IMG/VR virus record: IMGVR_UViG_3300020048_000028
Length of the DNA stretch: 64,000 bases
Source of the DNA: an uncultured virus (IMG/VR IMGVR_UViG_3300020048_000028)
Lineage: Duplodnaviria > Heunggongvirae > Uroviricota > Caudoviricetes
Reading direction: 5' to 3' (one strand)
Shown here in pieces: positions 7,197 to 63,818 of the stretch; position 1 is the stretch's first letter, and every line of letters starts with the position of its first letter. The notes below the pieces were generated by a model that saw only the letters and a list, made by a program, of their open reading frames with translations, was not told where the DNA came from and searched no databases. The position numbers were made by a program, and so were the translations under genes.

Positions 7197-7502
7197 ATGG
7201 CTACATATAAACAAAAATCAGAAATTCATGGAATTGGATTATTTACTTATGAAAATATAAAAGAAGGAGATGTAATTATGGAGGTTGCAGATTTAAACAG
7301 GTTTTATAAAAACATGGAATTTATAACAAATAAAGGCAAATTAGTTAATCATAAAAAAGATTGCAATTGCTACATAAATCTTGTTATAGACAAGTATTAT
7401 CTATTGGCAAATCGTGATATAGAACCAAATGAAGAATTAACTGCCGATTATTCTGTTTTAGAATATCCTTTTAAAAGTGATGTAACGGGTTATAAAAATT
7501 AA
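7197..7502 (+). CDS. minimal SET-domain protein (putative lysine methyltransferase)
   Basis: SEIHGIGLF, VNHKKDCN and EELTADY match the SET motifs GxG, NHxxxxN and ELxxDY. Confidence 0.8.
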   Translation: MATYKQKSEIHGIGLFTYENIKEGDVIMEVADLNRFYKNMEFITNKGKLVNHKKDCNCYINLVIDKYYLLANRDIEPNEELTADYSVLEYPFKSDVTGYKN

Positions 7503-23964: not shown

Positions 23965-23976
23965 ATTAAGATTATT

Positions 23977-39934: not shown

Positions 39935-39958
39935 TACAACATCATTAAAATTATTAAA

Positions 39959-46800: not shown

Positions 46801-48058
46801 TGCTTTAAATACAAATATTGAAGAAAAAATTAAAATATTATGGGGTAAGGAAACTCGCTCTATTAATAAAGAAGCTGCAATATTTGATTCGTATAAAACA
46901 AGAGTTCAAGATGTTAAGAAAAAATATAGTAATTCTATATCGTTATTGGATGACTTGGTTACTGTTTTTAACTCTGTAAGTAAAGCTGTTCAAGATTATT
47001 ATTTAGGTACTTTTATTAAAAATGATTTTCGTATTGAAAGTGCTAATATAAAAGATAGATTTAAGGCTGAAAGAGTTGCATTAGTAGATAGCATAAATAA
47101 AACTTATGATGCTGATTTATTAGAGTGGGAAAGATTGAAAGAGGAAAATGAAAAATTAAATAAGGAAAATGAAAAGAAAAATAAAGCTAATGATAAGTTT
47201 ATCAAAGAAGGTAAAATTAAAAAAATAGCTAAAATTGAATTTACTTTAGATAAACCTCTTAAAAAAGATGAAAAATATCAACCTGATTACGGTTTAATTG
47301 ATTTACAAGAAGAAAATTCTTTAATTGAAGCTAAACAAAAAGCTATTGATATTAATTTGAAAAAAGCGGAAGATGGTATATTTACTGAAGATGAAATAAT
47401 TTATTATACTCCTATTAATAACACTATGGCTTATTCTGATATTTCAGCTATTGTAAATAAGTTATTATCTCAATTATCAGCTTTATGGATTTCTATTATT
47501 CCTAATGATGAAATGATGGTTTATAACGGTAGAATAAAAGTTAGCGGATATTATTGGGTAGCAGAAAGTAAAGGTTTAATGGTAGATTATAATTTAACAT
47601 CTACGTTAAACTCAGATACAATGCTTTCTTCAAGAATGTCAACAGCTATAAAGGAAAATAATATGCAAAATGTATATGGTGGTTTTTCTTTATTCAAAGA
47701 CTTCTGTAAATTGTTTACAGGTGGAGGAGGAATAGAAGGCGTACTTTCTGATTACCAATCACTTGTTACCGTAAATGGAAAGGATATAACTACCATTGAT
47801 GATTTAATCAATGATTACGAAATTAAGATTAGAGAGTACAACGATAAACTTAATAACAAGGATGCGTTTTTTGCTAAATATAGAACTATGTTTGTTGAGC
47901 AAGAAGAAAAAATTAAAAAAGAAAGAGAGTCTTTGACAAATATGAAACAATATGTATTGCTTGATGTAAATAAGTTCTGTGAAACGAACAAATTTATATA
48001 CATAAAAGGTTCATTGTCTGAAGATGAAAAAAAAATAATGTTTAAAATAAAAGAATAA
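40874..48058 (+). CDS. giant SF2 (SNF2/DarB-like) helicase
   Basis: LAHEVGFGKT (I), IVDEVHNF (II), LSATPF (III), EGINLQ (V), QLEGRIWRQGN (VI). Confidence 0.9.
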   Translation: MDKNFIQYQASSVKDLIDLFDYTFTSDGNEYKLIDFVKSQLITYPDLRPYVSQLFDKKITNDKEWFTYNISAEYVEVLFQADDYDEVCLNFVKLYNSYVLYKNDTIVIEFGRNNAWEIKSKEFYSDKNKSNIIDTQNVGFVYNPELSETVQTSRTEIDFSSNSDIERYRDILTIFKNGISFYTKDEARGESSYSIVDKDRDKIFVSEPVKSIIINQTNLKGVIPLQSNFYFNPEDVNKQVSVSVRADLEYAEWKSDVSDIDILNDNIAVYNEVNKLRDLAKSKANSYIGANYIDKINKKALLKSKYKFYSLASLKDKNNLYPNTAVNLVFNKERTISTMVDGYDFYYTMALLCKVDSDITFDIYYDEENKKVVFLGSRMMSVKTPIGFNQSTMQLEYAIKDVFLTITLPVLEQYYNIIDEVWLFSYSLSTSLSEIIEYNKELDEISKIKIPTEFLNQKDIIAKGQMVKIESIEEKINNTKSKGKVLLNKVASYIEDYILTYCHKKQFDVKDENGNVVSVKNIYEPNTTDKRFFTQGTQEGTQVNYDYVWKVNELFWRYNNNLSIIEMMAYFVAKGDDYYYRLLSYRILGVDCYLFKDLLIEPLLVEGVLCIDDFSINVQLKSIEKPLSYSYKYEYATGNYYEKRRKLFSIDQSDLDNLSIYPMRESVILYFGREIGENIIQNQLFLLENRLVKPSEMTWNSKSDNSKLFSNPLDPIFLQSETVNIKNKSGYSNLVVKDFYDFLGSARFTNDQVTRKDLLYAYVLRLPESVSIPLQFINEFNCYKIAILSKENPENTKGVDVFAVFGANDNKNEKPLFLANDSINSQDCKYYIRNKNFAGSIKFKRRRKMTKKGYKDLGTYAFSKNLDHLDDESFINLFEGGFISKDEYDNNLINTINRKKIVAEILIAFNTKQPKVIIEGDIQFNKYMNTKVDNLDALKMQQIWNERYNYSMYPKQSVMVEGFNEVLKLDNSKFPIFIEHSRFFKDENSQEFLLNDNQIDGIKFHVGNDNSSLLAHEVGFGKTTTSICSLTHNFLTGKANRTMISVPNPTYINWISEMKGQTISDTKKLRGLIPHINIVELKNARKDVFLKYDAKTFTQTEGIKKYTKSQIQIIHNFASATSIIVAEINQRVKKIYFTDYESKKENFDALIKFIEKTFDSNLTDWRSEAFFTNYFEELGENKNEYQSQFNDKINIENDLEFNSVQKVNDNLNKTQKEKDDEILNIRDKYKKKKIKIFEDSSKDFTSQVIALLKSKQNSIFDVIGVYEECFLRKYSVIICTHEAIGQLRVNKEVAQQISMELKDNNSFADELERNAIGFDKLDIDSIIVDEVHNFNELFAYSKRQISQLIPSYRSKSYFIASDYSLNSLSNIGSPRFAKKARGTNLSSVIKFNLSSKKTSVIKSSLFGICKTLQNNFSNKKAINIMLLSATPFVDNLFQMIGVFNMLRPFPLPINFFSNYLYQEWDWENDHKGETVLKVQTSNFKNHDARNNWIRLYSQFYTFDQRINAKRPNKFVYPYDCKNSVNQYEDNCNSSVYLDFSEEQYSIYKNIGKFVDGVIGRDNIVKIKLNTVAVTKELYIDSDNITTCKELIDKSDSSYDLESAAELFIHNNWIQVLLDTKSEYHKEISEIYDVIKEEYLKQISDEEDEDSKLDDDGEVSVQDINDESEISGNGISDAGTRALQAQDLGKKLSLSPYMITAMENGVNLFKDSYINSDLPPLYGMNTPENMLKSAINFVETSPKIYFCVKAIQCLIKKHIENGEDISGQIIYMAWGQSFWYGGYMYNGMELIKAYLANSLNLNKTFTVEESDELSRSGVDSKKCGASDISVKAKKENVLKSYNLSEIQIVSGKSQDALKKSAISKSFNNGKIKVLIGSGTIKEGINLQGEKNHGNSTIYVLTAEYAPMAMMQLEGRIWRQGNPLENVRMVYPLIKNSIDSHIYSKLNEKIKKVKNMLEAGIYDFKETQFDKDIEGVSLALNTNIEEKIKILWGKETRSINKEAAIFDSYKTRVQDVKKKYSNSISLLDDLVTVFNSVSKAVQDYYLGTFIKNDFRIESANIKDRFKAERVALVDSINKTYDADLLEWERLKEENEKLNKENEKKNKANDKFIKEGKIKKIAKIEFTLDKPLKKDEKYQPDYGLIDLQEENSLIEAKQKAIDINLKKAEDGIFTEDEIIYYTPINNTMAYSDISAIVNKLLSQLSALWISIIPNDEMMVYNGRIKVSGYYWVAESKGLMVDYNLTSTLNSDTMLSSRMSTAIKENNMQNVYGGFSLFKDFCKLFTGGGGIEGVLSDYQSLVTVNGKDITTIDDLINDYEIKIREYNDKLNNKDAFFAKYRTMFVEQEEKIKKERESLTNMKQYVLLDVNKFCETNKFIYIKGSLSEDEKKIMFKIKE

Positions 48059-52666: not shown

Positions 52667-53311
52667 ATGAAAAAAGACAACAACAACAACAACAATGACA
52701 ATGACAATAACGAAAGTAGAGAAATCGAAATTGAACACAGAGTAGTTATTGAAGAAGAAAAAATTGAAATCTCTGAACTTCCTAAAGAAATCAGACAAGC
52801 CATGAGAGGCTTTAATCAGAAGCTTGCCAAATACGAAGAAACAGGAGATGATAACTTGTATTATGAATTGCAGCAAGATGATGTCGCAATAGCTGATGGT
52901 ATTGAAAATTGGATTGAAGATAACGCATCAGATGATGATGATGAAGATGATTCTTATTTAGAAGATGAAAAAGTAAAAGCACAAGCACAAGCACAAGCAC
53001 AAGCTCAAGCACAAGCTCAAGCACAAGCACAAGCACAAGCACAAGCTCAAGCACAAGCACAAGCACAAGCTGATGCTAATGTTGCAGCCGATAAGGCACA
53101 AGCTGATGCTGACGCTGCTGCTGCCGCTGCTGCTGCTGCTGCCGTACCTCCATCAATTAAGGATAAAGTGTTATTGGCAATTAAGAATAATATTATTAGT
53201 GTAAAAGAATTAGAAAGTATTATAGGCAGAGAGCCTGATTATCCTACTGAAAAAATAAATGATTTGGTTTTAAGAAAACAATACATGAAACCTTTTTATG
53301 AATTAATTTAA
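52667..53311 (+). CDS. acidic protein with (AQ)n/poly-Ala linker and C-terminal GRE-tag
   Basis: Ends ISVKELESIIGREPDYP...RKQYMKPFYELI. Confidence 0.8.
   Translation: MKKDNNNNNNDNDNNESREIEIEHRVVIEEEKIEISELPKEIRQAMRGFNQKLAKYEETGDDNLYYELQQDDVAIADGIENWIEDNASDDDDEDDSYLEDEKVKAQAQAQAQAQAQAQAQAQAQAQAQAQAQAQADANVAADKAQADADAAAAAAAAAAVPPSIKDKVLLAIKNNIISVKELESIIGREPDYPTEKINDLVLRKQYMKPFYELI
52979..53070 (+). repeat. coding hexamer microsatellite (GCWCAA)n encoding (AQ)n
   Basis: About 15 tandem GCACAA/GCTCAA units. Confidence 0.95.
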
Positions 53312-53455: not shown

Positions 53456-53914
53456 ATGATAAACGAAGAAAAAGAACTTTACGAACTTATTCGTAATTTA
53501 ACTAAAGGCTTGAAGCGACATGGCATACGGAAAGTTACAAAAGCTTTAAAGCAGATAAATTTAGACAACGAAGATGAAGTTAATTTTTCTATAATTGATT
53601 TTATAGAAAATGCCGTATGTACTAAACTTGGCGTTCCCAAAGATGAAATATTTGGCTTTAAATCAAGAGGCGAAATTACAATAGCAAGAAAATTCTGTAT
53701 TCTTTTGGTTAGACGGTTTATCTCAAATATTTCTGATGAAGAATTAGGTAATCATTATAATAGAAGTAGACAAGTCGTTCATACTACCGAAAAAGAACTT
53801 AGGTTATTAAAGAGTGGTAAAAAGAATAAATTTCATATTGATTTTATATCTATTTATGATGATTTAGAAATACAGACAGAAAAATTCATTAATGTTTTAA
53901 AGAAAGGTAAATGA
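53456..53914 (+). CDS. DnaA C-terminal (domain IV)-like HTH protein
   Basis: KSRGEITIARKFCILLVRR...LGNHYNRSRQVVH. Confidence 0.65.
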   Translation: MINEEKELYELIRNLTKGLKRHGIRKVTKALKQINLDNEDEVNFSIIDFIENAVCTKLGVPKDEIFGFKSRGEITIARKFCILLVRRFISNISDEELGNHYNRSRQVVHTTEKELRLLKSGKKNKFHIDFISIYDDLEIQTEKFINVLKKGK

Positions 53915-55353
53915 TAGATTTTGATAAAAAAGGTAGAGGCAGACCAAAAAAAACAGATGCTACTGTAATTCAAAAAAACACATTCGATGAAACTAATACA
54001 AATAATAATTCTGTAAATAATAGCGATATAAATAATAGCGATATAAATAATGATGTTGATATTGATGCGGATGAAGATGCAGACCTTAAACAGTATTTAA
54101 AAAATAAAGTTAAAAATAAAACGGAAATGAGCAATCCAATAGCAAATATTGACGAGGAAATTCTAAAAGAAATAGAGGATATTGATAAGAAAAGCACTAT
54201 TCAAAATGATGATATTCCCGATTCTGATTATAATCCACTTGAAGAAGCTGTTGAGGATAGAGGTTATACAAAGGGTATGAATCATCAAGCTAATATTGGA
54301 GTTGAAAGAATTATAGACGAGCCTACTTATATGTCGGGTTCATCTGTAAGACCTGATGTTGATGAGAGGCTTTTAAATCCCGACATGGGAAATAATACTA
54401 CTACTAAATCAAATTCAGGCGGAAGTAGTAATTCAGGAGGCGGTAATTCAGGTAATTCAGGAGGCGGTAATTCAGGTAATTCGGGTAATGCTAATTCGGG
54501 AGGTAATTCAGTAGGAAATTCAGGAAATGACTTTAGTAGTAATTCAAGTCAAAATTCTGATAATGTATCAAGTTCAAGTAACGGAGAAAAGGGAGGTAAT
54601 GAAAAAAAATTAACTCTTAAAGAACAGAGAGATGGTGCTGAGAAAACTGCCGAGATAGCTTTAATGGCTTATAAAAACTATGTTCCATTACCATTTATTT
54701 ATTTCAGTAAATTTAATGTAAAGAAATTAAAAGAATCTGAAAAAGCAGGTGAGATTGATTTACAAACTCCTTTTGATAGAAAAGGAACTAAATTCATAGA
54801 CCATGTAAATAAATTTAATAAAGAAGTAGAAAATTCTTTTGAAGTTAGTGAAGAAGAAATTGAAGCTCTAAGAGAGCCTTTGATTGATGTCTTAATGGAA
54901 AAAGAAGTCAGTTTAACTCCAACTCAGCGATTAATATTTGTTGCAGGTCAATTTACAGTAGCCAAGATTATTAATGTCGTTAGATTGGTTTCTCAGCAAA
55001 AAGAAGATATTGCTGATATGAAACAGATGCACAAAGAAAGAATGGAATCTGATAGATTAAATAGAGAGGTTACTGTTAATTCTCAAAAAACAAGAGTAGT
55101 AGTAAATAGAGAAAAAAACAGACCTACTGCTTCTGAAAAAATACAAGAAGTAGAAGTTGAAGAAGTTATAGCAAGAAACAATCCTACTATGGATGAGGTT
55201 ATTAATATGGTAGCAGAAGAAGAACAAGAAGAACAGGAAGAAGAAGAACAAGAAGAAGAACAAGAAGAACAAGAAGAACAAGAAGAACAAGAAGAACAAG
55301 AAGAAGAACAAAAGTTATTAGATGATGATGATGACAATGATATTCCTGATTAA
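53911..55353 (+). CDS. low-complexity protein: N-terminal AT-hook, S/G/N linker, hydrophobic segment, acidic EQE tail
   Basis: KGRGRPKK; NSGGGNSG repeats; (GAACAAGAA)n at about 55218-55311. Confidence 0.8.
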   Translation: MIDFDKKGRGRPKKTDATVIQKNTFDETNTNNNSVNNSDINNSDINNDVDIDADEDADLKQYLKNKVKNKTEMSNPIANIDEEILKEIEDIDKKSTIQNDDIPDSDYNPLEEAVEDRGYTKGMNHQANIGVERIIDEPTYMSGSSVRPDVDERLLNPDMGNNTTTKSNSGGSSNSGGGNSGNSGGGNSGNSGNANSGGNSVGNSGNDFSSNSSQNSDNVSSSSNGEKGGNEKKLTLKEQRDGAEKTAEIALMAYKNYVPLPFIYFSKFNVKKLKESEKAGEIDLQTPFDRKGTKFIDHVNKFNKEVENSFEVSEEEIEALREPLIDVLMEKEVSLTPTQRLIFVAGQFTVAKIINVVRLVSQQKEDIADMKQMHKERMESDRLNREVTVNSQKTRVVVNREKNRPTASEKIQEVEVEEVIARNNPTMDEVINMVAEEEQEEQEEEEQEEEQEEQEEQEEQEEQEEEQKLLDDDDDNDIPD

Positions 55354-55366
55354 TTAATTATAATTT

Positions 55367-56218
55367 ATGAGAGAGCCACAATTAATAATAGCTACGGGAA
55401 CAAAGGGTGTTGGAAAAACTTACAAAACTTGTGAGCTTGTTCAAGAATACCTTACTCCTAATATTAAAATAGGAAAGAAACCAAGAAAAGTTTTAATATT
55501 TGATGTAAATGGAGAATATACAAATGATGAAATTGTTAAAAATGGTTTTAGATTTAGAATAAAAACACTTGCTCTAAGAGATTTAGAGGAATGGTCTAAA
55601 CAAAAAAGAGTTGAAGTAAGAAGGATTCTTCCTGTTGATGCAAAAGGCAACGAATTAGGTACAGAGCAATATCCCGAAGTGCTTGAGGTAATATTACATT
55701 ATTTTAAAGGTGGTATGCTTATATTAGAAGATATTAATAAATACCTTACAGAAACAAGAAACGCTAAAATAATTGGAGCTTTAACAACAAACAGACATAG
55801 AGATTTAGATATATACATACACTTGCAATCACTTTCTCCTTTGACAACAAGGATGTGGCAAAATGCAAACGTAATTAGATTTCACTATCAATTAGATGAT
55901 ATTGATAGATATAAAGCAAGGATACCAAATTATGAACTTTTTAAAGTTGCTCAATTAATGGTAAACGAAAAATATATGTCGGGTGATATAAGGTTTTTTT
56001 GTTATGTATTAAATCAAGGGAATAAGATTATAGGTAATTTTTCAAAAGAAGATTTTATTTTAGCTTGCAGGCATTATCTTGAATTGCATGGTTCTAAACT
56101 TAAATTAGTTCAGCAGAAGTATGGTAAAGATTACGATTCTCAAATTAAAGCTATGAAAGAATGTATAGTAGAGCTTTATAAAAAATATTACGGAAATAAT
56201 AAAAAAGCAATTAGCTAA
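55367..56218 (+). CDS. FtsK/HerA-superfamily ATPase resembling A32-type viral packaging ATPases
   Basis: GTKGVGKT, LIFDVNGEY, LILED, NRHRDLDIYIHLQS...RMWQN. Confidence 0.7.
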   Translation: MREPQLIIATGTKGVGKTYKTCELVQEYLTPNIKIGKKPRKVLIFDVNGEYTNDEIVKNGFRFRIKTLALRDLEEWSKQKRVEVRRILPVDAKGNELGTEQYPEVLEVILHYFKGGMLILEDINKYLTETRNAKIIGALTTNRHRDLDIYIHLQSLSPLTTRMWQNANVIRFHYQLDDIDRYKARIPNYELFKVAQLMVNEKYMSGDIRFFCYVLNQGNKIIGNFSKEDFILACRHYLELHGSKLKLVQQKYGKDYDSQIKAMKECIVELYKKYYGNNKKAIS

Positions 56219-56273
56219 ATAAACAATCAAAACCAAAACAACCAAAAAAACCAAATCAAATAAACCAAAGACT

Positions 56274-57233
56274 ATGACAACACTAACAACATTATTATTA
56301 TTTAATTTTCCATTAGTATTTTTTTCTATTATAGCTATTATATTATTTGTATCGTCTGTGTACGGTAATATAAATAAAGACGATAATATTGAGGTTGATG
56401 AAGAAACAAGTTATTTAAAAGAATATTTAGATAATGAAACTAAGAGTTTTACTTTTTATTTGGAAAATACAAGTAATATTGAGTTAGAATTGGATTTATG
56501 TAATTTAGAAAATAGTGTTTTATATAAATTTGACACTCCTTCTACCGACTATAAAAAATTAGTTGAATATTTAAAAGTTAATAGTTTTAATGTTAATTTA
56601 ACGAGAGTATCATATAACAACGCTTCGTGGAAAAAAGATATTATTAGAAGTTTACAATATACTCCTTTTCGTATTATCGAAAATCCTATTTTTCATGGTT
56701 ATAATAATATGAGTCCTTTTCAATTTCAGAGTAATCTTGTAGATACTGCCGAGCCTTATAAATTTAATTATTTCAATAGCTTAAAAGTTAAATTAAATCC
56801 CTCTGACAAAAAAATTATCACCTTGTTTGTAACTGACGATGATAATTCTGTAATAGATAATACTAAATATTTAGCCTGTTTGTCAATAACTAACAATACC
56901 AATGAGGATAAAATGGTAAAGCTTTTTGATAGAAAGTTTTTTTCTGAAATAAAAGATAATGAGATAGAGATTGAATCTATTTATAAAAAAGGAGAGTATC
57001 CTGTTGTTATGGATGTATATTGTTCAAGACCTTTGATTGCAAAATATATAAAGTTTTTGACTGAATATTCATTTATTAAATGTAAAATAAATAAAAATGT
57101 TCATAATGTTATTCCAAATATAAATGCTTTTCAGACGAATATTTTAGAGCTTGATATGGCAGAACCTTTATTTATTGGAGAATTTGAAATAAATGTTGAG
57201 GCAAATAGTGAGTTACTTGTTTCTTTTTATTAA
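56274..57233 (+). CDS. membrane-anchored protein with an internally duplicated beta-rich domain
   Basis: N-terminal TM segment; two halves with the pattern (L/I)xN(T/N)...Y...FQ(S/T)N(L/I)...AEP. Confidence 0.7.
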   Translation: MTTLTTLLLFNFPLVFFSIIAIILFVSSVYGNINKDDNIEVDEETSYLKEYLDNETKSFTFYLENTSNIELELDLCNLENSVLYKFDTPSTDYKKLVEYLKVNSFNVNLTRVSYNNASWKKDIIRSLQYTPFRIIENPIFHGYNNMSPFQFQSNLVDTAEPYKFNYFNSLKVKLNPSDKKIITLFVTDDDNSVIDNTKYLACLSITNNTNEDKMVKLFDRKFFSEIKDNEIEIESIYKKGEYPVVMDVYCSRPLIAKYIKFLTEYSFIKCKINKNVHNVIPNINAFQTNILELDMAEPLFIGEFEINVEANSELLVSFY

Positions 57234-57253
57234 ATTTAAAAGACAAAAATAAC

Positions 57254-57940
57254 ATGAAATCTAAAATACTATTTAAGTTTGCAACAAGGTCAAGACCTGA
57301 TAAATTCATTACGGGAATTAATAACATATTCGCTAAGGTTTCAGATAAAGAAAACTTTCAGGTTTTAGTTAGTGCCGATAGTAATGATACATCTATGTAT
57401 AACCAAGAGGTTATGAATAAGATTAAAGACCACTTAGATTCGGGAAAGATTATAATGTCTTTCGGAGAAAGTAAATCAAAGATTGACGCTATTAATAGAG
57501 ATATGGAGTTGGTTAATGATTGGCATATATTAATGAATTTTTCTGATGATATGGAGTTTATTACAGATGGCTTTGATGAAATAGTTCGTTCTCATTTCGC
57601 TACTCACTTTCCTGACTATAACGGTAATATGTATTACAATGATGGATTTGTCGGAGATAAATTAAGTACTATGTCAATTATAGGTAAAACTTATTTTGAT
57701 ACAGTTCTTAATAAGAGAATATACAATGATGAATATATGTCGCTTTTTTGTGATAATGAATACACAGAAGTTGCTAAAAAATTAAATAAAATTCAGTATT
57801 ATAATATGATTCTTTACAAACATAATCATCCATCTAATAATGGAAGTATGTTAGATGAGCAATATAGAAGAACAGAATCTTATTGGGAACAAGATAAATT
57901 AGTATATGAAAAACGCTCTAAAATCAACTTTGGATTATGA
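57254..57940 (+). CDS. GT-A fold glycosyltransferase-like protein
   Basis: ATRSRP, SKIDAIN, NFSDDM, FCDNE, HNHP. Confidence 0.75.
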   Translation: MKSKILFKFATRSRPDKFITGINNIFAKVSDKENFQVLVSADSNDTSMYNQEVMNKIKDHLDSGKIIMSFGESKSKIDAINRDMELVNDWHILMNFSDDMEFITDGFDEIVRSHFATHFPDYNGNMYYNDGFVGDKLSTMSIIGKTYFDTVLNKRIYNDEYMSLFCDNEYTEVAKKLNKIQYYNMILYKHNHPSNNGSMLDEQYRRTESYWEQDKLVYEKRSKINFGL

Positions 57941-58218
57941 AAATATTAATTACTTTAAAAAGAATATTCTTTTTGCCTCATATAATTACGACAGCAATTA
58001 TTTTAGTTATTTATTATTATTTTATATTTAGAAACGCTATAAAAAATAGCCCTGAATATAATAGTGAAACGATTCAATTGGATACTATTGATTATTTTAA
58101 AAAATATTTCCCTGAAATTAAAACTGACATAGATATATATAACGAAAAATACTTTTTTATTAAATATGTTTTTTCTTTGTTATTTTGGCTTTTCATTATC
58201 AACATAATAATTTTTTAA
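57937..58218 (+). CDS. small membrane protein
   Basis: Hydrophobic termini. Confidence 0.65.
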   Translation: MKILITLKRIFFLPHIITTAIILVIYYYFIFRNAIKNSPEYNSETIQLDTIDYFKKYFPEIKTDIDIYNEKYFFIKYVFSLLFWLFIINIIIF

Positions 58219-58234
58219 TAAATAAATTTCAAAT

Positions 58235-58858
58235 ATGTCTTACACACAAAACAACGAAGAAGCATTAATACTTAATCACTTCTCAAACAGAAACCCTTCA
58301 GATTTAACCGTACTTGATATTGGTGCTAATGATGGAAAAACATTTAGTAACTCGCTTAAAGTAATTGAGCTTGGGTGGTATGGTTTATTAGTTGAGCCAT
58401 CTCCAAAAGCATTTAAGATGCTTACTGAATTACATGGTTTTAAAAATAATGTAATGTGTTTCCCTATTGCTATAACCAATCAAAATGGTATGTTTCAATT
58501 ACAAGAAAGTTCTTCAATATTAAATCAGGGAGATACCTCGCTTGTATCATCTTTAAAACAAGAAGAAACAGTAAAATGGGCAAATAACAATGTTCGTTTT
58601 AATGAAGTAAATGTTATGGGTATGGACTTTAAATCATTCCAAGCAACTGCTACTCGTAACCGATTTAATCTTATCTCTATTGATGTAGAGGGTTATGATT
58701 ATGAAGTTTTATCTCAAATAGATTTAGCTTCAGTTGGCTGCGAAATGCTTATTGTAGAATTTAATGGAAAAGATGAAGCATTATTTACTGATTATGCTAA
58801 TAAGTTTGGTATGAAATTAATTTCTAAAAATCCTGAAAATCTTATATTTGTAAAATAA
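58235..58858 (+). CDS. FkbM-family methyltransferase
   Basis: VLDIGANDG, LLVEPSP, ISIDVEGYD. Confidence 0.9.
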   Translation: MSYTQNNEEALILNHFSNRNPSDLTVLDIGANDGKTFSNSLKVIELGWYGLLVEPSPKAFKMLTELHGFKNNVMCFPIAITNQNGMFQLQESSSILNQGDTSLVSSLKQEETVKWANNNVRFNEVNVMGMDFKSFQATATRNRFNLISIDVEGYDYEVLSQIDLASVGCEMLIVEFNGKDEALFTDYANKFGMKLISKNPENLIFVK

Positions 58859-58869
58859 ATAATAACGAC

Positions 58870-59115
58870 ATGGCAGATTTTATGTATTTAATCTTTATAA
58901 TTTGGAATTACTTATGGATATTAGGAATACTGTGTATTTTTCTAAGAAGTGATTATAAAGAAGTGCTTATTGAAATATTTTCAATGCCGCTTCAAAATAA
59001 TTTATTCTTAATAATTGTTTCGGGGCTAATAATATATGTATTTATTCCTTTAACTATTCCTTACAGCATGAAGGAAATTATATATAATAAAAACAACGAC
59101 AACGACAAAAAATAG
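58870..59115 (+). CDS. small membrane protein
   Basis: Two hydrophobic segments. Confidence 0.65.
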   Translation: MADFMYLIFIIWNYLWILGILCIFLRSDYKEVLIEIFSMPLQNNLFLIIVSGLIIYVFIPLTIPYSMKEIIYNKNNDNDKK

Positions 59116-59118
59116 AAA

Positions 59119-59472
59119 ATGAATTTAAAAGATTTAAAAGATAACATAACTATAAAAATGGTAGCTGACGATTTCGGAGTTTTACAACGGAATGGATATG
59201 ACTTAACTTGCCCTATTATACCACCTCAGACAGTAAGGCAGGTTGTTAAAGGAGCTTTAGGTCAACAGCAAGAGCAAATTTCAATACAAAAAGTAGCTTG
59301 TAATACTATTTGCCCACTTTTAAAAATTAATGGAAATGATACCGTTTCTGTTTGTTGTGGAGCTATTGAGGTTGTTCACCAAATAAATAAAGTAATCGAG
59401 CTTTTAGATTCAAATGAGCAAGAAAATAAAAAAATAATTAATTTAAACATAAATAAAACTGATATTAATTAA
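59119..59472 (+). CDS. hypothetical Cys-containing protein
   Basis: CP...CNTICP...CC. Confidence 0.7.
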   Translation: MNLKDLKDNITIKMVADDFGVLQRNGYDLTCPIIPPQTVRQVVKGALGQQQEQISIQKVACNTICPLLKINGNDTVSVCCGAIEVVHQINKVIELLDSNEQENKKIINLNINKTDIN

Positions 59473-59477
59473 ATTAA

Positions 59478-60164
59478 ATGAATAAGAGAATTTGTATTAT
59501 AAATTTTTCTGATGATGCAGGAAATTTCAAAAGTGGACAATGGAGATTAGTTGAATCTTTAAAAAACGTAGGTTATGAAGGGGATATTCAATTATACAAT
59601 AGTCATTATCAATTAGGATGTAAGCCTCATGCAGAAGTACCTTATCAGTTTAAGGCATACGCTATTCATAAAGCATATAAAGATGGTTATGATGTTGTTC
59701 TATATTGTGATTCATCAATTTTTCCAATTAAAAATATTACTCCATGCTTAGAGTATATTGAGCAAAATGGGTACTTACTTGAAAGTTGCGGATTCCATCT
59801 TGGTCAATGGTGCAGCGATATAGCATTAAATAAATTCGGTATAACAAGAGATGAAGCATTTCAAATGCGAATGCACTCAGCAGGTTTTACGGGATTAGAT
59901 TTTAGTAACGAAAAATCTAAACAATTTATTGAACAATGGTATGAGTATGCTAAGGCTGAAGAAACATTTAAGGGAGCGTGGAGAAATGATAATAATGAAG
60001 TTTCAGCCGACCCAAGATGTAGTGGGCATAGGCACGACCAATCTGTTGCAACTTATTTAGCAAATAAATTAGAAATGAAAGCTATTAAACCTCATTTTAT
60101 GCAATATAAATATGAAAATTCAGTAATTAAGGAATCTTCAATATTTTTGTGTCAGGGGATATAA
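59478..60164 (+). CDS. putative glycosyltransferase (GT-A-like)
   Basis: FKAYAI, VLYCDSS, HRHDQS. Confidence 0.65.
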   Translation: MNKRICIINFSDDAGNFKSGQWRLVESLKNVGYEGDIQLYNSHYQLGCKPHAEVPYQFKAYAIHKAYKDGYDVVLYCDSSIFPIKNITPCLEYIEQNGYLLESCGFHLGQWCSDIALNKFGITRDEAFQMRMHSAGFTGLDFSNEKSKQFIEQWYEYAKAEETFKGAWRNDNNEVSADPRCSGHRHDQSVATYLANKLEMKAIKPHFMQYKYENSVIKESSIFLCQGI

Positions 60165-60185
60165 TAATAAATAAATAATAATAAT

Positions 60186-60725
60186 ATGGAAAAAGTGTTT
60201 TTGTTTTCACAGGGTGGTTCGGGTACAGGGTACACTTTGAAAAATTTTGATTGGCATGAAGGTATTTATGGTCGCCATGATAGAAATCCAACATTTAAAA
60301 ATATAGATGATAAATTTGTTTATTTATTTAATAACCCCATAGATATATTATTGTCATTTCAAAGAAGAAATTTTTTAAAAGGCAGAGAGGCTATTAAAAA
60401 TCTACAAGGAGATTTATCTTACAATGTTAATGATATTGTAGAATATGCGAGAAATAATAAAGATTATTTTCTGTTTGAAAATCACTTTAATTCTTTTTTT
60501 AATCAGGAAAACAAAGGTTTATTTATAAAATTTGAAGGTCTTGATAAAGGTTGGGATGAAATTGAAAGTTTTACAAAAATGAAAAGAAAAAATAATTTTG
60601 AATGGCTTAAAAAACTAAGCAATCCTAACATATTAAATGATGTTCAATATAATATGTTGCACTATATATATAAAGATTGGATTGCGAGATACAATGAAAT
60701 GCCTAACTTTTTTTACAATAAATAA
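60186..60725 (+). CDS. sulfotransferase-like P-loop protein
   Basis: SQGGSGT, YLFNNPIDILLSF, FIKFE resemble PAPS-binding motifs. Confidence 0.5.
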   Translation: MEKVFLFSQGGSGTGYTLKNFDWHEGIYGRHDRNPTFKNIDDKFVYLFNNPIDILLSFQRRNFLKGREAIKNLQGDLSYNVNDIVEYARNNKDYFLFENHFNSFFNQENKGLFIKFEGLDKGWDEIESFTKMKRKNNFEWLKKLSNPNILNDVQYNMLHYIYKDWIARYNEMPNFFYNK

Positions 60726-60742
60726 ATAATAAAATAAATAAC

Positions 60743-61432
60743 ATGACACAAGAACAAATCAATGAGATGTTTAAATACATCGGGAATTTTGTTTACTCAA
60801 CAACGGATACTCAAAAGCATAGCTTTGAGATGGGTAAATATGTAGTTAATAACAACATCGAAGGAGATATTGTAGAATGCGGCATCGCATCAGGAGCAAA
60901 CTTTGCTACAATGATGCTTGGAGCTATCACAAATCAAGCAGGGTACGACAGAACCTTTTGGGGATTTGATAGCTTTGTAGGTATTCAATTAGCAGGAAAA
61001 AAAGATACTGTTCAAGCAGGTATTGGTGCAATTACACACAATGTTAATGTTCCCGAAGAACAACTTTTAGTTTCAAGTGGAATTACAGTTCATCCTAAAT
61101 CTCAAGTTATTGGTCATTTGACTAATTGGGGATTAATGCCAAGATTGAAAATTAATCTTGTAGAAGGGTGGGTTCAAAATAGTATTCCAACTGTTTTAGC
61201 TCAAATGAATAAAATTTCTATTTTACGTTTAGATATGGATATTTACGAGCCTACTAAATTTACATTAAAACATTTATATCCTTTAATTAGCAAAGGTGGC
61301 GTTATTATTATTGATGATTGGGCTTTAGATGGTGCAAGATTAGCTTGTACTGAATATCTTGAGGAAAATAATATTAAAGTTGATATTCTTGATATACCCA
61401 ATTCTACTCCGAAATTCTTCTTTAAACCATAA
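60743..61432 (+). CDS. TylF/MycF-family O-methyltransferase
   Basis: GDIVECG, GFDSFVG, LRLDMDIYE, GGVIIIDDW. Confidence 0.9.
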   Translation: MTQEQINEMFKYIGNFVYSTTDTQKHSFEMGKYVVNNNIEGDIVECGIASGANFATMMLGAITNQAGYDRTFWGFDSFVGIQLAGKKDTVQAGIGAITHNVNVPEEQLLVSSGITVHPKSQVIGHLTNWGLMPRLKINLVEGWVQNSIPTVLAQMNKISILRLDMDIYEPTKFTLKHLYPLISKGGVIIIDDWALDGARLACTEYLEENNIKVDILDIPNSTPKFFFKP

Positions 61433-61443
61433 AAATAGCTAAA

Positions 61444-62028
61444 ATGACCAAAGACTTAGCTATACTAATTCCAACATTACCCGAAAGACTTGACAACTAT
61501 TGTGGGTTAATGAACGAATTAAAAAATCAAAGAGAAAGGTTTGGACTTCAAGATAAAGTTCAAATACTTTCTTTATTGGACACAAAAGAAATGACTGTTG
61601 GAGAAAAGCGTAATTGGCTTTTGGATATGTCGTATAACGCAAAATATATTCAGTTTCTTGATGATGATGATAAAGTAGCTAATGATTATTTATTAAAGAT
61701 GCAACAAGGTACTTTATACGATAGAGATGTTGTAACTTTTAATGGCGAATATCACGAAGCAGGATTACATAATTGTGATTTTTTAATATCAACTATGGTA
61801 TTAAATGATTCAAATGAAGCAGGTATGATGTACAGAAAACCAAATCATATTTGTGCGGTTAAACGTAGTATAGCTGTTCAATGTCGCTTTCCAATTAAAA
61901 ATTTTGGAGAAGATAGTGAATACGCATCACTTATTAACAAATTGATAAAATCTGAGCATCATATCAATGAAAAATTATACTTTTATATGTTTGATAAAAA
62001 TACATCTCAAACTCACGCATTCAAATAA
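61444..62028 (+). CDS. GT2-like glycosyltransferase
   Basis: ILIPT, GEKRN, FLDDDD, GEDS. Confidence 0.85.
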   Translation: MTKDLAILIPTLPERLDNYCGLMNELKNQRERFGLQDKVQILSLLDTKEMTVGEKRNWLLDMSYNAKYIQFLDDDDKVANDYLLKMQQGTLYDRDVVTFNGEYHEAGLHNCDFLISTMVLNDSNEAGMMYRKPNHICAVKRSIAVQCRFPIKNFGEDSEYASLINKLIKSEHHINEKLYFYMFDKNTSQTHAFK

Positions 62029-62052
62029 TTAAAACTAAAAACCAAAGACCAA

Positions 62053-62580
62053 ATGAAAGAAAAACAAGCAGTACAAAACAGCGAAAATGCTCAAATGTTA
62101 GCGTTAGATTTACAGCAAAAAGAGCAAATTGACAACAAACTTAATTTCTATAAGACTATGCTGAAAGCGTATGAGGACTTATCGGAAGTAATTAGCAAAA
62201 AAGTTTTATTTATTGATAGTATTGAACTTAGTCAAAAAAGTCTTGATGATATTTATGAAAAAAACAAACTTATCTTAGAAAAATTAGAAATTGAAAATAC
62301 TATTTTTAATAAAAAACAATTCTTTGAGATGTGGTTAAAGCGTTCTGCTGATTATGAGCAAAAATTTGCTATGATTACTGCCGAGTCTAATGAGAAATTT
62401 GATGAGGTAGAAGCACAAGCTAAAGAAATCGCTTTGGGAAATATCAAATTAAAGAGTTATATGGATAAGTATGATAAAGAAGAAAATAAAGAACAAAGAA
62501 TTAAAAACGAATACTATCTTCTTTTGAAATATGAGATTACTAAATTAACAGGTAAAGGCAAATTTGAAGTTGTAAAATAA
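62053..62580 (+). CDS. coiled-coil hypothetical protein
   Basis: 175-aa ORF. Confidence 0.75.
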   Translation: MKEKQAVQNSENAQMLALDLQQKEQIDNKLNFYKTMLKAYEDLSEVISKKVLFIDSIELSQKSLDDIYEKNKLILEKLEIENTIFNKKQFFEMWLKRSADYEQKFAMITAESNEKFDEVEAQAKEIALGNIKLKSYMDKYDKEENKEQRIKNEYYLLLKYEITKLTGKGKFEVVK

Positions 62581-62583
62581 TTC

Positions 62584-62693
62584 GTGCCTATGGAGGTGTC
62601 CTAATTATTGCCCTCACAATAATCCTGAAATAACGATTTCAGGCACTCTGACGGAGCATAACCCGTTAATACATAGGATAAACCAATAGGCAC
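62584..62693 (+). ncRNA. candidate structured RNA (multi-branch junction)
   Basis: Closing stems GTGCCTAT/ATAGGCAC and TGTCCTA/TAGGATA enclose three hairpins. Confidence 0.5.
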
Positions 62694-62710
62694 TTACTTT
62701 TTAATTATTT

Positions 62711-63334
62711 ATGAACTTAAAAGAGTTTGAGCCGATATTTAAAAATGACATAGCTCCTATTTATGTTAAACACAAAAAAGAATTTGACGAGTTCGGAATA
62801 CATGGCTGTTTACATATATCAAGGTCTTTAATTATAAGTAGATTGCTTTTTAAACAATTAACTAATTTAGGTTTTTTACTCGATATAGATAAAATAACTT
62901 ATGCAGTTGCTTTTCACGATAGTGGTAGAAAGGCTAATGGAATTGATTATTGGGAGGCAAATAGTTTTTATATATGCTCAAACTATCTTGATAATAAAAA
63001 CATACCTGATTCAAATTATATATCTTCTTTAATTATAAAAGATAATAATAAGAATGACTACAACTACTTTTGTGTTTATGATACCGATGTTTTAGAAATA
63101 GCCCGACCATGCACAGGTGTAGGCGTTTATAATTTCAATCCTACATTCCTAAAACTAAAAGATATATTTTCAAATCATTATACTACTATTCAAAATGAGG
63201 TTTTTAGCTTTATATTAGATACTGAAAATATAAAAGATAATTTTTCAAATGAAAACTCTTTAATTAACTTAATAGAATATTTAGAAAACAAAAAAGAATT
63301 ATATCCTTTGCTATATGATGCAAGTATTTCCTAA
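62711..63334 (+). CDS. HD-domain phosphohydrolase
   Basis: HGCLHISR, AFHDSGR, YDTDVLE. Confidence 0.8.
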   Translation: MNLKEFEPIFKNDIAPIYVKHKKEFDEFGIHGCLHISRSLIISRLLFKQLTNLGFLLDIDKITYAVAFHDSGRKANGIDYWEANSFYICSNYLDNKNIPDSNYISSLIIKDNNKNDYNYFCVYDTDVLEIARPCTGVGVYNFNPTFLKLKDIFSNHYTTIQNEVFSFILDTENIKDNFSNENSLINLIEYLENKKELYPLLYDASIS

Positions 63335-63818
63335 AATAATAAATGATAATTTTTACAAATGGTTTGATAGCTCTAAGGCTATTGATGGTAATGGAAAGTA
63401 TCAAATATATTATCATAAAAGTAGGTCTAAAGAATTATTTGAAGTTTTTAAAAGTAATGAAGTAGATAAAAATGTATATAACGATTCTTGTTATGGTTTT
63501 TACTTTGTAGCTGATTATCACAAATCTCATGTCGAATATATGGGAGATGGCGTTGAATATTATGTTTTTCTGAATTATAAAAAGCCGTTCTACGTTTACG
63601 ATAATGGATTGGGCGAGATAAAAGATATGGAGGGTAATTTATATCCCTATTTGGATATAAATAAAACCTTTTGCGAAAATTTAGAGTTAAAGGGTTATGA
63701 TGCTATTATTATAGAGTGCCATAGATATTACACTCAATATGTAGTTTTTCATAGTCATCAAATTAAGAGCATAGATAACAATGGAGATTATTCCGAAAAT
63801 TTAAACATATTCAAGTAA
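63315..63818 (+). CDS. stand-alone ART-like domain (same family as the polyvalent modules)
   Basis: FYKWF...G...YYH...GFYF...FLN...P...GYDAI...VVF...QIKS. Confidence 0.7.
   Translation: MMQVFPKIINDNFYKWFDSSKAIDGNGKYQIYYHKSRSKELFEVFKSNEVDKNVYNDSCYGFYFVADYHKSHVEYMGDGVEYYVFLNYKKPFYVYDNGLGEIKDMEGNLYPYLDINKTFCENLELKGYDAIIIECHRYYTQYVVFHSHQIKSIDNNGDYSENLNIFK

Follow-up and report, generated by a model that had tools for sequence, protein, structure and literature searches.

A candidate FtsK-HerA-type packaging ATPase in a putative lineage of large tailless viruses of bacteria

Introduction

The closest structural counterpart of the ATPase described here is B204 of STIV and STIV2 (Turriviridae; PDB 4KFR, 4KFS and 4R2H), a compact single-domain protein of the FtsK-HerA type with its Walker A motif at the extreme N-terminus. 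STIV infects an archaeal host and has a genome of about 17 kb. In the bacterial viruses PRD1 (P9, P20, P3; 14.9 kb) and PM2 (P9, P7, P2; 10.1 kb) the ATPase gene is annotated ahead of the capsid gene, which encodes a double jelly-roll protein. P23-77-type viruses are also tailless and contain a membrane, and they build their capsids from two single-jelly-roll proteins. SSIP-1 infects a Bacteroidota-type host and is likewise tailless with a membrane; its circular genome of 43,788 bp is comparatively large. It is described as having a PRD1-type architecture and two capsid protein types (PMC6356626).

According to a 2021 comparative review of jumbo phages, no prokaryotic virus that combines an internal membrane with an A32/FtsK/HerA-like ATPase is known to reach a large genome size, whereas in eukaryotes the giant viruses arose from this plan (PMC7824862). 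A literature search, with subscription journals outside its range, found no published description of large bacterial viruses with this kind of ATPase. If the lineage presented here is what it appears to be, this asymmetry in gigantism between viruses of prokaryotes and eukaryotes is false, and genome gigantism on a terminase-free packaging plan would become open to study in bacteria.

The stretch of DNA analyzed, referred to here as the window, comprises 64,000 nucleotides and is part of a freshwater virus genome of more than 64 kb, probably with a host in the Bacteroidota. Near-identical DNA was found mainly in lake-water metagenomes, where 13 runs had a share of at least 0.20, two of these runs belonging to the study that is the probable source; no RNA sequencing run with near-identical sequence was among the runs listed. 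An earlier note on this DNA had proposed that an ATPase gene in the window belongs to a large tailless bacterial virus. The main lines of that proposal hold, and it is partly supported. No tailed-phage genes were detected, and no double jelly-roll capsid protein was found. We consider it likely, with some reservation, that the protein is an A32/P9/B204-like genome-packaging ATPase of a tailless virus of the membrane-containing type, belonging to an undescribed lineage with large genomes.

Properties of the ATPase gene

The gene occupies positions 55367 to 56218 of the plus strand, starts with ATG and encodes a P-loop ATPase of the FtsK-HerA superfamily with 283 aa. Used as a query against a collection of 5.8 billion proteins, it returned 540 candidates, 192 of which had E <= 0.001 (best 5.4e-176). 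This number of metagenomic homologues is far beyond that of a chance open reading frame, and the gene is real. As reported earlier, Walker A (GTKGVGKT, residues 11-18) lies near the N-terminus, Walker B reads LILED (residues 118-122), and an R-x3-N motif is present as R162-M-W-Q-N166. The RH-x7-Q motif requires correction: R143-H144 is found, but nine residues separate it from Q154 and the x7 spacing leads to H152. In an alignment of 41 homologues with 48-91% identity to the window protein, the Walker residues G11, G16, K17, T18, E121 and D122 do not vary, and the same holds for H144, D148, H152, Q154, R171, H173 and Q175. R143, R145 and R162 are conserved as well and are candidate arginine fingers. 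Walker A and Walker B sit on a RecA-like core, the defining feature of the superfamily, and structural alignment places this core from residue 2 of 283, so that the protein is compact and stands alone. A hydropathy scan found no hydrophobic or transmembrane segment in it, and a Pfam scan no second domain.

The AlphaFold2 model of the ATPase (pLDDT 91.3, pTM 0.87) matched B204 best in both structural aligners used. In Foldseek searches against the PDB, ranks 1-10 were all STIV2 or STIV B204 packaging NTPase chains (E 1.8e-8 to 1.7e-7, TMt up to 0.69), followed by the Zot N-domain (4.7e-7) and SIR2/HerA (5.7e-6). VIA-align over 48,161 chains also ranked B204 first (Z 18.2, rmsd 2.6, 187/204 residues), ahead of DndH-C (Z 17.4), HerA (16.1), TdpAB (15.4) and VirB4 (15.2), with TrwB (12.8), Zot (11.4) and FtsK (10.9) lower; B204, DndH-C, HerA, VirB4, TrwB and FtsK, at Z 10.9-18.2, are all members of the FtsK-HerA superfamily. 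Compared with B204, the modeled protein has an identity of only 15-18% and is about 80 residues longer; among the extra residues is a helical stretch towards the C-terminus (about 227-274) that has no counterpart. On the model, DndH-C is statistically tied with B204 in VIA-align, within 1 Z, and HerA falls about 2 Z below. As DndH-C is tied and HerA, TdpAB and VirB4 follow closely, structure alone does not put the ATPase in the A32-like branch.

The viral structural matches of the model are mostly A32-like, although on fold evidence this does not amount to proof of membership in the A32-like clade. In BFVD, packaging ATPases from jelly-roll viruses prevail among the top 50 matches, with a Corticoviridae NTPase first (2.9e-7), and A32-like ATPases of Nucleocytoviricota, virophages, polintons and adenovirus (IVa2) account for many of the best. 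Among these 50 are giant-virus proteins from mimivirus, klosneuvirus, medusavirus and tupanvirus, proteins of STIV, PH1, Sputnik V3, mavirus and adintovirus, and adenovirus IVa2, ASFV B354L and cowpox protein CPXV151. Pox_A32 gave no Pfam match to the ATPase at E <= 1, and hhalign assigned the family a probability of only 10.8% against PRD1 P9 and 12.1% against PM2 P9, so that there is no confident profile link. The 157-column alignment with PM2 P9 brings together Walker A, 'RKVLIYDVNxEY' versus 'ARVLAWDVDEDY', and 'IHLQS' versus 'VATQS'. No terminase family of Pfam or PHROGs matches the window ATPase, and its structural matches are not terminases; the ATPase of one relative has a weak match to phrog_2666 'terminase large subunit' (2.8e-6). 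Searches of PDB sequences by phmmer and hmmsearch returned only marginal HerA-type matches (E 0.0057 or weaker) amid antibody noise. By tblastn, neither the ATPase nor the beta-sandwich protein described below matched any GenBank phage.

Just two Pfam families score above their cut-offs, Zot (PF05707; 24.3 bits against 20.3, E 2.4e-5, residues 13-176) and, at the borderline, DUF87/HerA (PF01935; 23.3 bits against 23.2, E 7.7e-5, residues 11-70). Together with the structural likeness to Zot, DndH-C and HerA and weak matches to PHROG 'Zot-like toxin' (0.0061), PADLOC mad8 (8.8e-5) and PADLOC HerA (0.0024), these raise the prospect that the gene encodes an assembly-secretion ATPase similar to Zot/pI, or a defence ATPase of the HerA type carried as cargo. 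We regard this as very improbable. The proteins share the superfamily fold, but the window ATPase has neither the C-terminal transmembrane and periplasmic part of the inovirus proteins nor the HAS-barrel N-domain of HerA, and no inovirus genes accompany it in its dsDNA context of more than 64 kb. Zot lies below B204 in both aligners (TMt 0.46 versus 0.69; Z 11.4 versus 18.2). PADLOC scans of the neighbors showed no defence partner, such as Sir2, NurA or Dnd, and no partner nuclease; the invariant neighbors are HTH, helical and beta-sandwich proteins, and PADLOC and NCBIfam scans of these cassette genes gave nothing meaningful. The question of an A32-like or a HerA-like protein, posed earlier, is thus answered in part: B204 is the best match in Foldseek and VIA-align and the extra domains of HerA are absent, but DndH-C is tied with B204 and the profile link to P9 is weak.

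A conserved gene cassette

The ATPase gene is part of a cassette with the order DnaA-C-like HTH protein, helical partner, ATPase and then, usually, a jelly-roll-like beta-sandwich protein. In the window the first gene (53456 to 53914, plus strand) encodes a small protein of 152 aa that resembles the C-terminal domain of DnaA (PF08299, Bac_DnaA_C; E 6.8e-7, 29.7 bits, under the cut-off of 31.5). A homologue of it lies two genes upstream of the ATPase in 38/49 related loci. The second gene (53911 to 55353, plus strand) encodes a partner of 480 aa, found directly upstream of the ATPase in all six genomes compared. Its N-terminal half is of low complexity. Some 160 aa (residues about 232-381) form a helical domain that is conserved, and the hydropathy scan shows one hydrophobic helix near residue 341; no family in Pfam, PHROG, NCBIfam or PADLOC matches it.

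In genomes of the type of G001, a viral contig of 84.7 kb, the beta-sandwich gene follows the ATPase gene directly, the same order as in PRD1 and PM2. The one candidate that was folded is a single beta-sandwich (pLDDT 89.5, core near 97). Its best fold matches are weak and generic, namely a nepovirus coat protein (Z 6.1), a carbohydrate-binding module (Z 5.9) and the second jelly roll of PRD1 P3 (Z 5.3); its BFVD matches have E >= 2.5e-4. ESM Atlas searches with the protein gave scores of 0.76 or less, to unnamed clusters. The family is large, with 2840 cluster representatives at E <= 0.001, and some of them occur in 2-4 tandem copies; a basic C-terminal tail is present in some members, and multidomain forms of 699-770 aa also occur. 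The single-jelly-roll candidates, often paralogues, recall the P23-77 plan. Neither Pfam nor PHROGs recognized a double jelly-roll capsid protein in the window, in G001 or in a related contig of 375 kb, a difference from PRD1 and PM2. A Pfam search for the NCLDV capsid gave no match either, but the control genomes were equally silent, which makes the result little informative. On the choice between jelly-roll and HK97 capsids that the earlier note had singled out, no HK97 capsid was detected, and the jelly-roll side offers a candidate with weak fold matches (Z <= 6.1). Another conserved protein (39776-40558 in G001, with homologues) was considered as a capsid protein and rejected, as it carries a metalloprotease-type HExxH motif.

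The gene downstream of the ATPase in the window (56274 to 57233, plus strand) encodes a protein of 319 aa that begins with a transmembrane helix at its N-terminus. This protein is the top match of the beta-sandwich family HMM among 426 six-frame segments of the window, although a weak one (E 3e-5, one domain of 17.6 bits). The search of 5.8 billion proteins with this protein found only itself, and a homologue occupies the same position in the related L101 (E 1.7e-41). As judged from sequence, it appears to be a divergent, fast-evolving member of the jelly-roll-like family, with the canonical copy beyond the window.

The cassette suggests how packaging could proceed. The HTH protein, encoded two genes upstream, would mark viral DNA for packaging. 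The helical partner, by means of its hydrophobic helix, may dock the ATPase at a special vertex or at the internal membrane of a tailless, membrane-lined particle. The ATPase could then form a ring and pump dsDNA into a preformed shell by ATP hydrolysis, with K17 and T18 of Walker A, E121 and D122 of Walker B, the conserved R143, R145 and R162, and Q154 as the predicted residues for hydrolysis. The shell itself would be built from the jelly-roll-like family whose gene usually adjoins that of the ATPase. If this is correct, the virus toolkit gains an unnamed capsid-candidate family of the size given above (2840 cluster representatives) and a three-gene packaging cassette.

Relatives and shared gene content

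A scan of viral contigs with the single ATPase protein found no relatives, whereas the ATPase alignment used as a query did. The relatives examined were G001, a genome of 69 kb and the contig of 375 kb; six genomes were used to compare the core. G001 is an IMG/VR viral record with a CheckV completeness of 100% and 84 scanned ORFs, the 69-kb relative has inverted terminal repeats of 4.66 kb, and the 375-kb contig carries 33 tRNAs and a tmRNA, with large proteins of no known family at about 117-147 kb. Genome sizes in the lineage most likely range from some 60 kb up to at least 375 kb. They far exceed those of described bacterial viruses with such a motor and are 4 to 37 times those of PRD1 and PM2. 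At least one of them is linear with long inverted repeats, unlike the circular SSIP-1, and HMMs of the ATPase, the beta-sandwich and the partner found no match in SSIP-1, PRD1 or PM2. Compared with STIV, the host is bacterial and the window genome exceeds 64 kb.

The six-genome core contains the ATPase, its partner, a cluster of topoisomerase IB and polyvalent proteins, the HExxH protein, a LEA_2-like protein, the beta-sandwich, an SLT transglycosylase, a small membrane protein and a giant SNF2-type protein. Beyond the cassette, the shared core consists of small, partly membrane-associated proteins and lysis-type enzymes, and none of the conserved proteins matches a portal, terminase or capsid model. 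Scans with Pfam and PHROGs detected no terminase, portal or HK97 capsid gene in the 56 ORFs of the window, in the ORFs of G001 or in the 98 + 13 ORFs of the 375-kb contig, which cover all those of at least 250 aa. None of the three relatives, the 69-kb genome included, matched the terminase, portal, HK97-capsid or NCLDV-capsid models used. Six-frame Pfam searches with PF03237, PF17289, PF03354, PF05065 and PF04860 matched 0/5 records each. These are the genes (TerL, portal and the HK97 major capsid protein) whose presence, according to the earlier note, would speak against a tailless virus. As the window is only part of its own genome, genome-wide absence rests on the relatives; being profile-based, it would also be compatible with very divergent HK97, portal or terminase proteins that escape detection.

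Such divergence is the basis of the strongest competing explanation, a tailed jumbo phage with hallmark genes beyond current profiles, in which the ATPase would be an accessory pump or remodeller for replication, segregation or counter-defence. Much of the auxiliary gene content would suit it: polyvalent ART proteins, DarB-like SNF2 giants, tRNA arrays, tmRNA, many homing endonucleases, and RNA-ligase, RtcB and NAD-salvage genes are all typical of huge tailed phages. Auxiliary genes are shared with tailed Cellulophaga phages, including a 709-aa protein with 51.7% identity to theirs and 68% to that of a 462-kb uncultured phage record. There are also weak structural-protein matches, to T4_gp9_10_N in a collagen-like protein (24.4 bits, under the cut-off of 25), to phrog_4577 'tail protein' on the 375-kb contig (7.7e-7) and to 'tail fiber' families. 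The 'tail fiber' matches, however, all fall within collagen-type repeats, and the terminase, normally the easiest tailed-phage gene to detect, is absent from the six-frame Pfam searches (three families, 10 records in total) and from the PHROG scans of 84 ORFs of G001 and of the 112 ORFs of at least 250 aa on the 375-kb contig. The conserved virion-type genes are small. No other gene of the lineage is as well conserved as that of the ATPase, which is fixed beside the beta-sandwich gene, as the ATPases of PRD1 and PM2 are beside their capsid genes. We consider a tailed jumbo phage unlikely. A protein of G001 matches phrog_6126 'virion structural protein' at 7.3e-7.

Cassette copies occur in bacterial chromosomes, namely in a complete genome labeled Glaciecola, a Fluviicola isolate and a Parvicellaceae chromosome; the two cultured strains with chromosomal relatives, Fluviicola chungangensis MAH-3 and the strain filed as Glaciecola amylolytica THG-3.7, have both the cassette and the beta-sandwich gene and provide a direct experimental entry point. 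The ATPase was found in 0 of 400 further genomes sampled in the phylum, which argues that it is not a cellular gene, and the distribution of the family is sporadic, mobile and linked to viruses. Alternatively, the element could be mobile without being viral, for example a giant linear plasmid or an integrative element, and the cassette would then serve DNA segregation or DNA transfer between cells, of the FtsK/TraB or TrwB/VirB4 type. The chromosomal copies, the structural likeness to VirB4, TrwB and FtsK, a weak TrwB_AAD_bind Pfam match (E 0.019), a ParB gene on the 375-kb contig and the long terminal repeats of one relative agree with this idea. Linear plasmids also bear long terminal inverted repeats, and polyvalent proteins occur in conjugative elements; polyvalent ART proteins, the DarB-like protein and ParB are shared features of such elements and tailed jumbo phages. 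Against it, Pfam and NCBIfam detected no relaxase or type IV secretion component in the window, and the ATPase is without the membrane anchor of coupling proteins. The relatives have lysozyme, amidase and SLT enzymes, collagen-like fibres, RNA-repair genes, tRNA arrays and homing endonucleases, and IMG/VR lists them as viral, with a CheckV completeness of 100% for one of them. A mobile element of this kind seems to us improbable, and a packaging ATPase of a tailless virus remains our preferred reading.

Themes of the Nucleocytoviricota also recur in the lineage: the genomes are large and have tRNAs, topoisomerase IB and genes for glycosylation and for collagen-like proteins, and one relative has long inverted terminal repeats. 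A eukaryotic giant virus mis-binned with bacteria was considered and rejected. The tmRNA, a bacterial SSB, RusA, RecT and the cassette copies in bacterial chromosomes point to bacterial hosts. We can go further and suppose that these are the first large-to-giant bacterial viruses on a terminase-free A32-type plan, a bacterial counterpart of the eukaryotic giant viruses, with tRNA arrays, a tmRNA and a capsid made of a new single jelly-roll family that has expanded into many paralogues, some members being linear with kb-long inverted terminal repeats and the small chromosomal relatives of the Fluviicola type representing a temperate minimal form. This wider picture is possible, but we hold it only tentatively. 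In this picture, inverted terminal repeats of this length, together with topoisomerase IB and a RusA-type resolvase, would suggest poxvirus-like telomere handling.

Other genes of the window

The type IB topoisomerase noted earlier is encoded at 14302 to 15585 of the plus strand (PF01028, 4.4e-20), and its cluster is present in 6/6 compared genomes. A giant SNF2/DarB-like protein of 2394 aa is encoded at 40874 to 48058, plus strand (SNF2-rel_dom 2.5e-7; phrog_10089, DarB-like, 5.2e-17). Homologues of it lie less than 10 kb from the ATPase in 14/49 loci and occur in four of the six genomes. A QA-repeat protein of the window scores 6.9e-4 with phrog_156 'portal'.

The glycosylation genes mentioned in the earlier note are likewise confirmed by Pfam and PHROGs, as a plus-strand glycosylation/methylation cluster downstream of the cassette (57254 to 62028). 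It comprises two glycosyltransferase genes (57254-57940 and 61444-62028), methyltransferase genes of the FkbM (58235-58858) and TylF (60743-61432) types and a conserved unknown gene (59478-60164). Homologues of the cluster are found in G001, on the 375-kb contig and in L101.

The ATPase gene and its homologues

The ATPase gene (55367-56218, +) begins with ATG and encodes 283 residues. Walker A (GTKGVGKT, residues 11-18) lies near the N-terminus, and Walker B (LILED, 118-122) is followed by NRHRD (142-146), HLQS (152-155), RMWQN (162-166) and RFHYQ (171-175). The reading frame, its motifs and their conservation bear out the pattern described in the earlier note, R-x3-N included; the note's RH-x7-Q was wrong, as the actual spacing is RH-x9-Q and the x7 position is occupied by H152. 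In a collection of 5.8 billion proteins, 192 of 540 candidates were homologous at E ≤ 0.001, on contigs reaching 238 kb. Across 41 aligned homologues, which are 48-91% identical to the window protein, G11, G16, K17, T18, E121, D122, H144, D148, H152, Q154, R171, H173 and Q175 are invariant. The ATPase is real and conserved. No relative was found among GenBank phages by tblastn, and a search of 400 other genomes sampled from the phylum did not find the gene. Near-identical DNA occurs mainly in lake-water metagenomes from several studies.

Pfam profiles gave borderline matches to Zot (24.3 bits, cut-off 20.3) and DUF87/HerA (23.3 bits, cut-off 23.2), weaker ones to TrwB_AAD_bind and generic AAA families, and none to Pox_A32 at E ≤ 1. 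The PHROGs match was 'Zot-like toxin' (0.0061), PADLOC returned mad8 (8.8e-5) and HerA (0.0024), and no NCBIfam family was found. From sequence alone, the protein can be assigned to the FtsK-HerA/Zot neighbourhood but to nothing narrower.

Predicted fold of the ATPase

The AlphaFold2 model, built from the 41-sequence alignment, is confident (pLDDT 91.3, pTM 0.87), and neither a membrane segment nor an extra N-terminal domain was found in the protein. In a Foldseek search of the PDB, ranks 1-10 were all chains of the B204 packaging NTPase of the tailless membrane-containing viruses STIV2 and STIV (E 1.8e-8 to 1.7e-7, TMt ≤ 0.69), followed by the Zot N-domain (4.7e-7) and a SIR2/HerA complex (5.7e-6). 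B204 was also the top match of VIA-align among 48,161 representative chains (Z 18.2, rmsd 2.6, 187/204 residues), ahead of DndH-C (17.4), HerA (16.1), TdpAB (15.4), VirB4 (15.2), TrwB (12.8), Zot (11.4) and FtsK (10.9), with B204 and DndH-C tied under the program's own rule. Among predicted viral structures, the matches were mostly packaging ATPases of jelly-roll viruses. They included a Corticoviridae NTPase (2.9e-7), A32-like ATPases of mimi-, klosneu-, medusa- and tupanviruses, proteins of STIV, PH1, Sputnik (V3), mavirus and adintovirus, and adenovirus IVa2, ASFV B354L and cowpox CPXV151.

In its fold, and most likely in the way it works, the ATPase is closest to the compact packaging ATPases of viruses, a resemblance that is not proof of membership in that clade. 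An A32-like packaging ATPase had been proposed; the lead of B204 in both structure searches supports this, whereas the tie with DndH-C and the low hhalign probabilities of the ATPase family against PRD1 P9 (10.8%) and PM2 P9 (12.1%, over 157 columns in which the motifs correspond) do not. A Zot- or HerA-type cargo gene, which would agree with the borderline profiles and disagree with the ranking of B204 above Zot in both structure searches and with the lack of an extra N-terminal domain, is a very improbable reading.

Gene content of the window and its relatives

The window has a G+C content of 28% and almost all of its genes lie on the + strand. It encodes a DNA methylase, SSB, an exonuclease, a 101-residue SET-domain protein (7197-7502; PF00856, 8.4e-12; homologue on the 375-kb contig, 1.2e-29), a 2394-residue SNF2/DarB-like protein and methyltransferases, and profile searches confirmed the topoisomerase IB and glycosylation genes listed in the earlier note, among them glycosyltransferases. 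Three giant polyvalent proteins encoded in succession (1435, 974 and 1516 residues; 16733-29141) and a 167-residue protein (63315-63818) carry ART-PolyVal ADP-ribosyltransferase domains, with additional NUDIX, hemerythrin, GNAT and DUF3990 domains. The row of giant genes is interrupted by one for an Fe/Mn superoxide dismutase (23977-24591), and a TnpB/IS605 OrfB-type gene lies at 31012-32205 (PF01385, 8.3e-24; Cas12f1-like TNB domain, 2e-11). No tRNA was found.

Among 56 window ORFs, head, portal, terminase and tail families were absent apart from a 'portal' match (6.9e-4) within a QA-repeat protein and 'endolysin' matches within polyvalent proteins. Long low-complexity runs of poly-N/D, (QA)n, G/S/N-rich and (EEQ)n type at 52667-53311 and 53911-55353 produce spurious family matches, the 'portal' one included.

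Genome-wide content was examined in relatives of the window. An IMG/VR record of 84,705 bp with 100% CheckV completeness (G001) carries an ATPase about 38% identical to that of the window (locus L013). Its 84 ORFs matched PHROGs for glycosyltransferases, FkbM methyltransferases, a replication initiator, RecT, RusA and an AAA ATPase, and none for terminase, portal, capsid, sheath or tube; there was a single 'virion structural protein' match (7.3e-7), and 'tail fiber' matches were confined to collagen repeats. A 5338-residue protein (52323-68339, L057) consists almost wholly of such repeats. Smaller collagen-like proteins in this genome and the 375-kb contig adjoin many glycosyltransferases, recalling the glycosylated fibrils of giant viruses.

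The 375-kb contig (G006 contig 16; 375,071 bp, uniform 31% G+C) carries an ATPase 53% identical to that of the window and homologues of 25 of the 68 window ORFs, dispersed between 1.7 and 315 kb. A tmRNA and 33 tRNAs are encoded, three of the tRNAs at the contig start and the rest clustered with the tmRNA at ~243-272 kb (L071-L072). PHROGs searches of 98 + 13 ORFs, which take in all 112 of at least 250 residues, returned RNA ligases, RtcB, thymidylate synthase, NAMPT, PRPP synthetase, a CCA-adding enzyme, ParB, a helicase and many homing endonucleases, and no terminase, portal or capsid. A PurZ-like adenylosuccinate-synthetase homologue (L072:5845-7050; phrog_1211, 1.8e-58) may indicate modified (2-aminoadenine) DNA.

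In 113 ORFs of putative morphogenesis blocks, Pfam detected lysozyme, SLT, amidase, GDSL hydrolase, PAP2, LEA_2 and collagen, and no structural family, one T4_gp9_10_N match falling below the cut-off. Six-frame Pfam searches, which are independent of gene calling and introns, found Terminase_6N, Terminase_6C, TerL_ATPase, Phage_capsid and Phage_portal in none of five records each, with control genomes positive. TerL, portal and HK97 major capsid protein were detected nowhere in the window, G001, the 375-kb contig or the six-frame searches.

A core of ATPase, its partner and a topoisomerase IB/polyvalent-protein cluster is present in all six genomes compared. Five of the six each have an HExxH protein, a LEA_2-like protein and the beta-sandwich protein (the window by a weak match only); four each have an SLT transglycosylase, a small membrane protein, proteins of 74-155 and 70-131 residues, and a giant SNF2-type protein. 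No protein conserved across the six matched portal, terminase or capsid models. The strongly conserved HExxH protein (~260-284 residues; G001 39776-40558, 375-kb contig 128680-129534) has a metalloprotease-type motif and may be a maturation protease or lysis factor. The main rival, a tailed jumbo phage of very divergent type whose ATPase has an accessory role, could account for the isolated structural matches in the relatives and sits poorly with these searches; we regard it as unlikely. With moderate confidence, we favour a role of the ATPase as packaging motor in a bacterial virus that is large and terminase-free and is probably tailless and membrane-containing.

The gene cassette and a candidate capsid protein

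The partner gene (53911-55353) lies directly upstream of the ATPase gene, an adjacency seen in all six genomes, and encodes a conserved helical domain with one hydrophobic helix. It is preceded by a gene for a DnaA-C-like HTH protein (53456-53914), of which 38 of 49 related loci have a homologue at the equivalent place. Most relatives encode a beta-rich protein of ~230-290 residues just after or close to the ATPase (jackhmmer, 50 matches). This family comprises 2840 cluster representatives at E ≤ 0.001, of which 1268 reach at least 1e-10 and 247 at least 1e-30; some members occur in 2-4 tandem copies and some have a strongly basic C-terminal tail.

In the window, the ORF that directly follows the ATPase (56274-57233) carries a membrane helix at its N-terminus and was the best match to the family HMM among 426 six-frame segments, but a weak one (E 3e-5); in the large protein search it matched only itself. 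L101, a metagenome contig collinear with positions 55367-63818 of the window, has a homologue of this ORF (1.7e-41) and a canonical family member (E 3e-81) 14.7 kb downstream of the ATPase, so the canonical copy of the window's genome probably lies just past the window end.

The model of the beta-rich protein is confident (pLDDT 89.5, core ~97) and comprises an N-terminal helix, a disordered acidic linker and a beta-sandwich. Fold matches include many viral jelly rolls: nepovirus coat protein (Z 6.1), PR772 and PM2 vertex proteins, the second jelly roll of PRD1 P3 (5.3), PBCV-1, faustovirus and EhV capsid proteins, and picorna-, como-, gemini-, nano- and satellite-virus coats. Scores just as high come from carbohydrate-binding modules, nucleoplasmin and TNF/C1q domains, and BFVD matches are weak (E ≥ 2.5e-4). 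The predicted fold class is jelly-roll-like, and from linkage, abundance and paralogy we infer a capsid role. The proposal of a large Varidnaviria-like virus accordingly gains from the B204-like fold and the lack of detected terminase, portal and HK97 genes in relatives, but not from the weak jelly-roll match of its capsid candidate.

PRD1 and PM2 carry their capsid gene a short way downstream of the gene for the packaging ATPase, separated from it by genes for small membrane proteins, and the cassette here is arranged on the same logic. SSIP-1, another tailless virus, has a circular genome of 43,788 bp, in which HMMs of the ATPase, beta-sandwich and partner proteins found nothing similar. A review attributes to it a PRD1-type architecture with two types of capsid protein (PMC6356626). 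According to a 2021 comparative review of jumbo phages, large genomes were not known from any prokaryotic virus that combines an internal membrane with an A32/FtsK/HerA-like packaging ATPase (PMC7824862). No published description of the present lineage was found in the literature.

Genome ends and chromosomal copies

A related contig of 69,028 bp (G011, L089-L092) has inverted terminal repeats of 4.66 kb with 99.8% identity, which suggests a complete linear genome, at a CheckV completeness of 39%. Together with the topoisomerase IB of the lineage and the RusA-type resolvase of G001, these repeats suggest that the genomes are linear and that their telomeres are handled in a special way.

Bacterial chromosomes, too, contain the ATPase, HTH, partner and beta-sandwich genes together: a complete genome labelled Glaciecola amylolytica, a Fluviicola chungangensis isolate and a Parvicellaceae chromosome. 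Around these copies lie Abi, PLD, RadC and Cro/CI-type genes, the setting one would expect for integrated elements. A non-viral mobile element would suit such chromosomal residence and sits less well with the filing of relatives as viral in IMG/VR and with their lysozyme, amidase and SLT genes, tRNA arrays and homing endonucleases; we hold it to be improbable, and the viral packaging motor stays the preferred reading.

The ATPase and beta-sandwich modules of the Glaciecola-filed genome (Gammaproteobacteria) and the Fluviicola isolate (Bacteroidota), at loci L044 and L047, share ~75% DNA identity, and the RiPP and ABC-transporter genes beside them are also alike (67%), which points to cross-phylum transfer or a mislabelled genome. 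A 48-kb contig (L021) in a 'Candidatus Pacearchaeota' MAG carries the ATPase, HTH, glycosylation and two beta-sandwich genes, and its placement there is probably a binning artefact.
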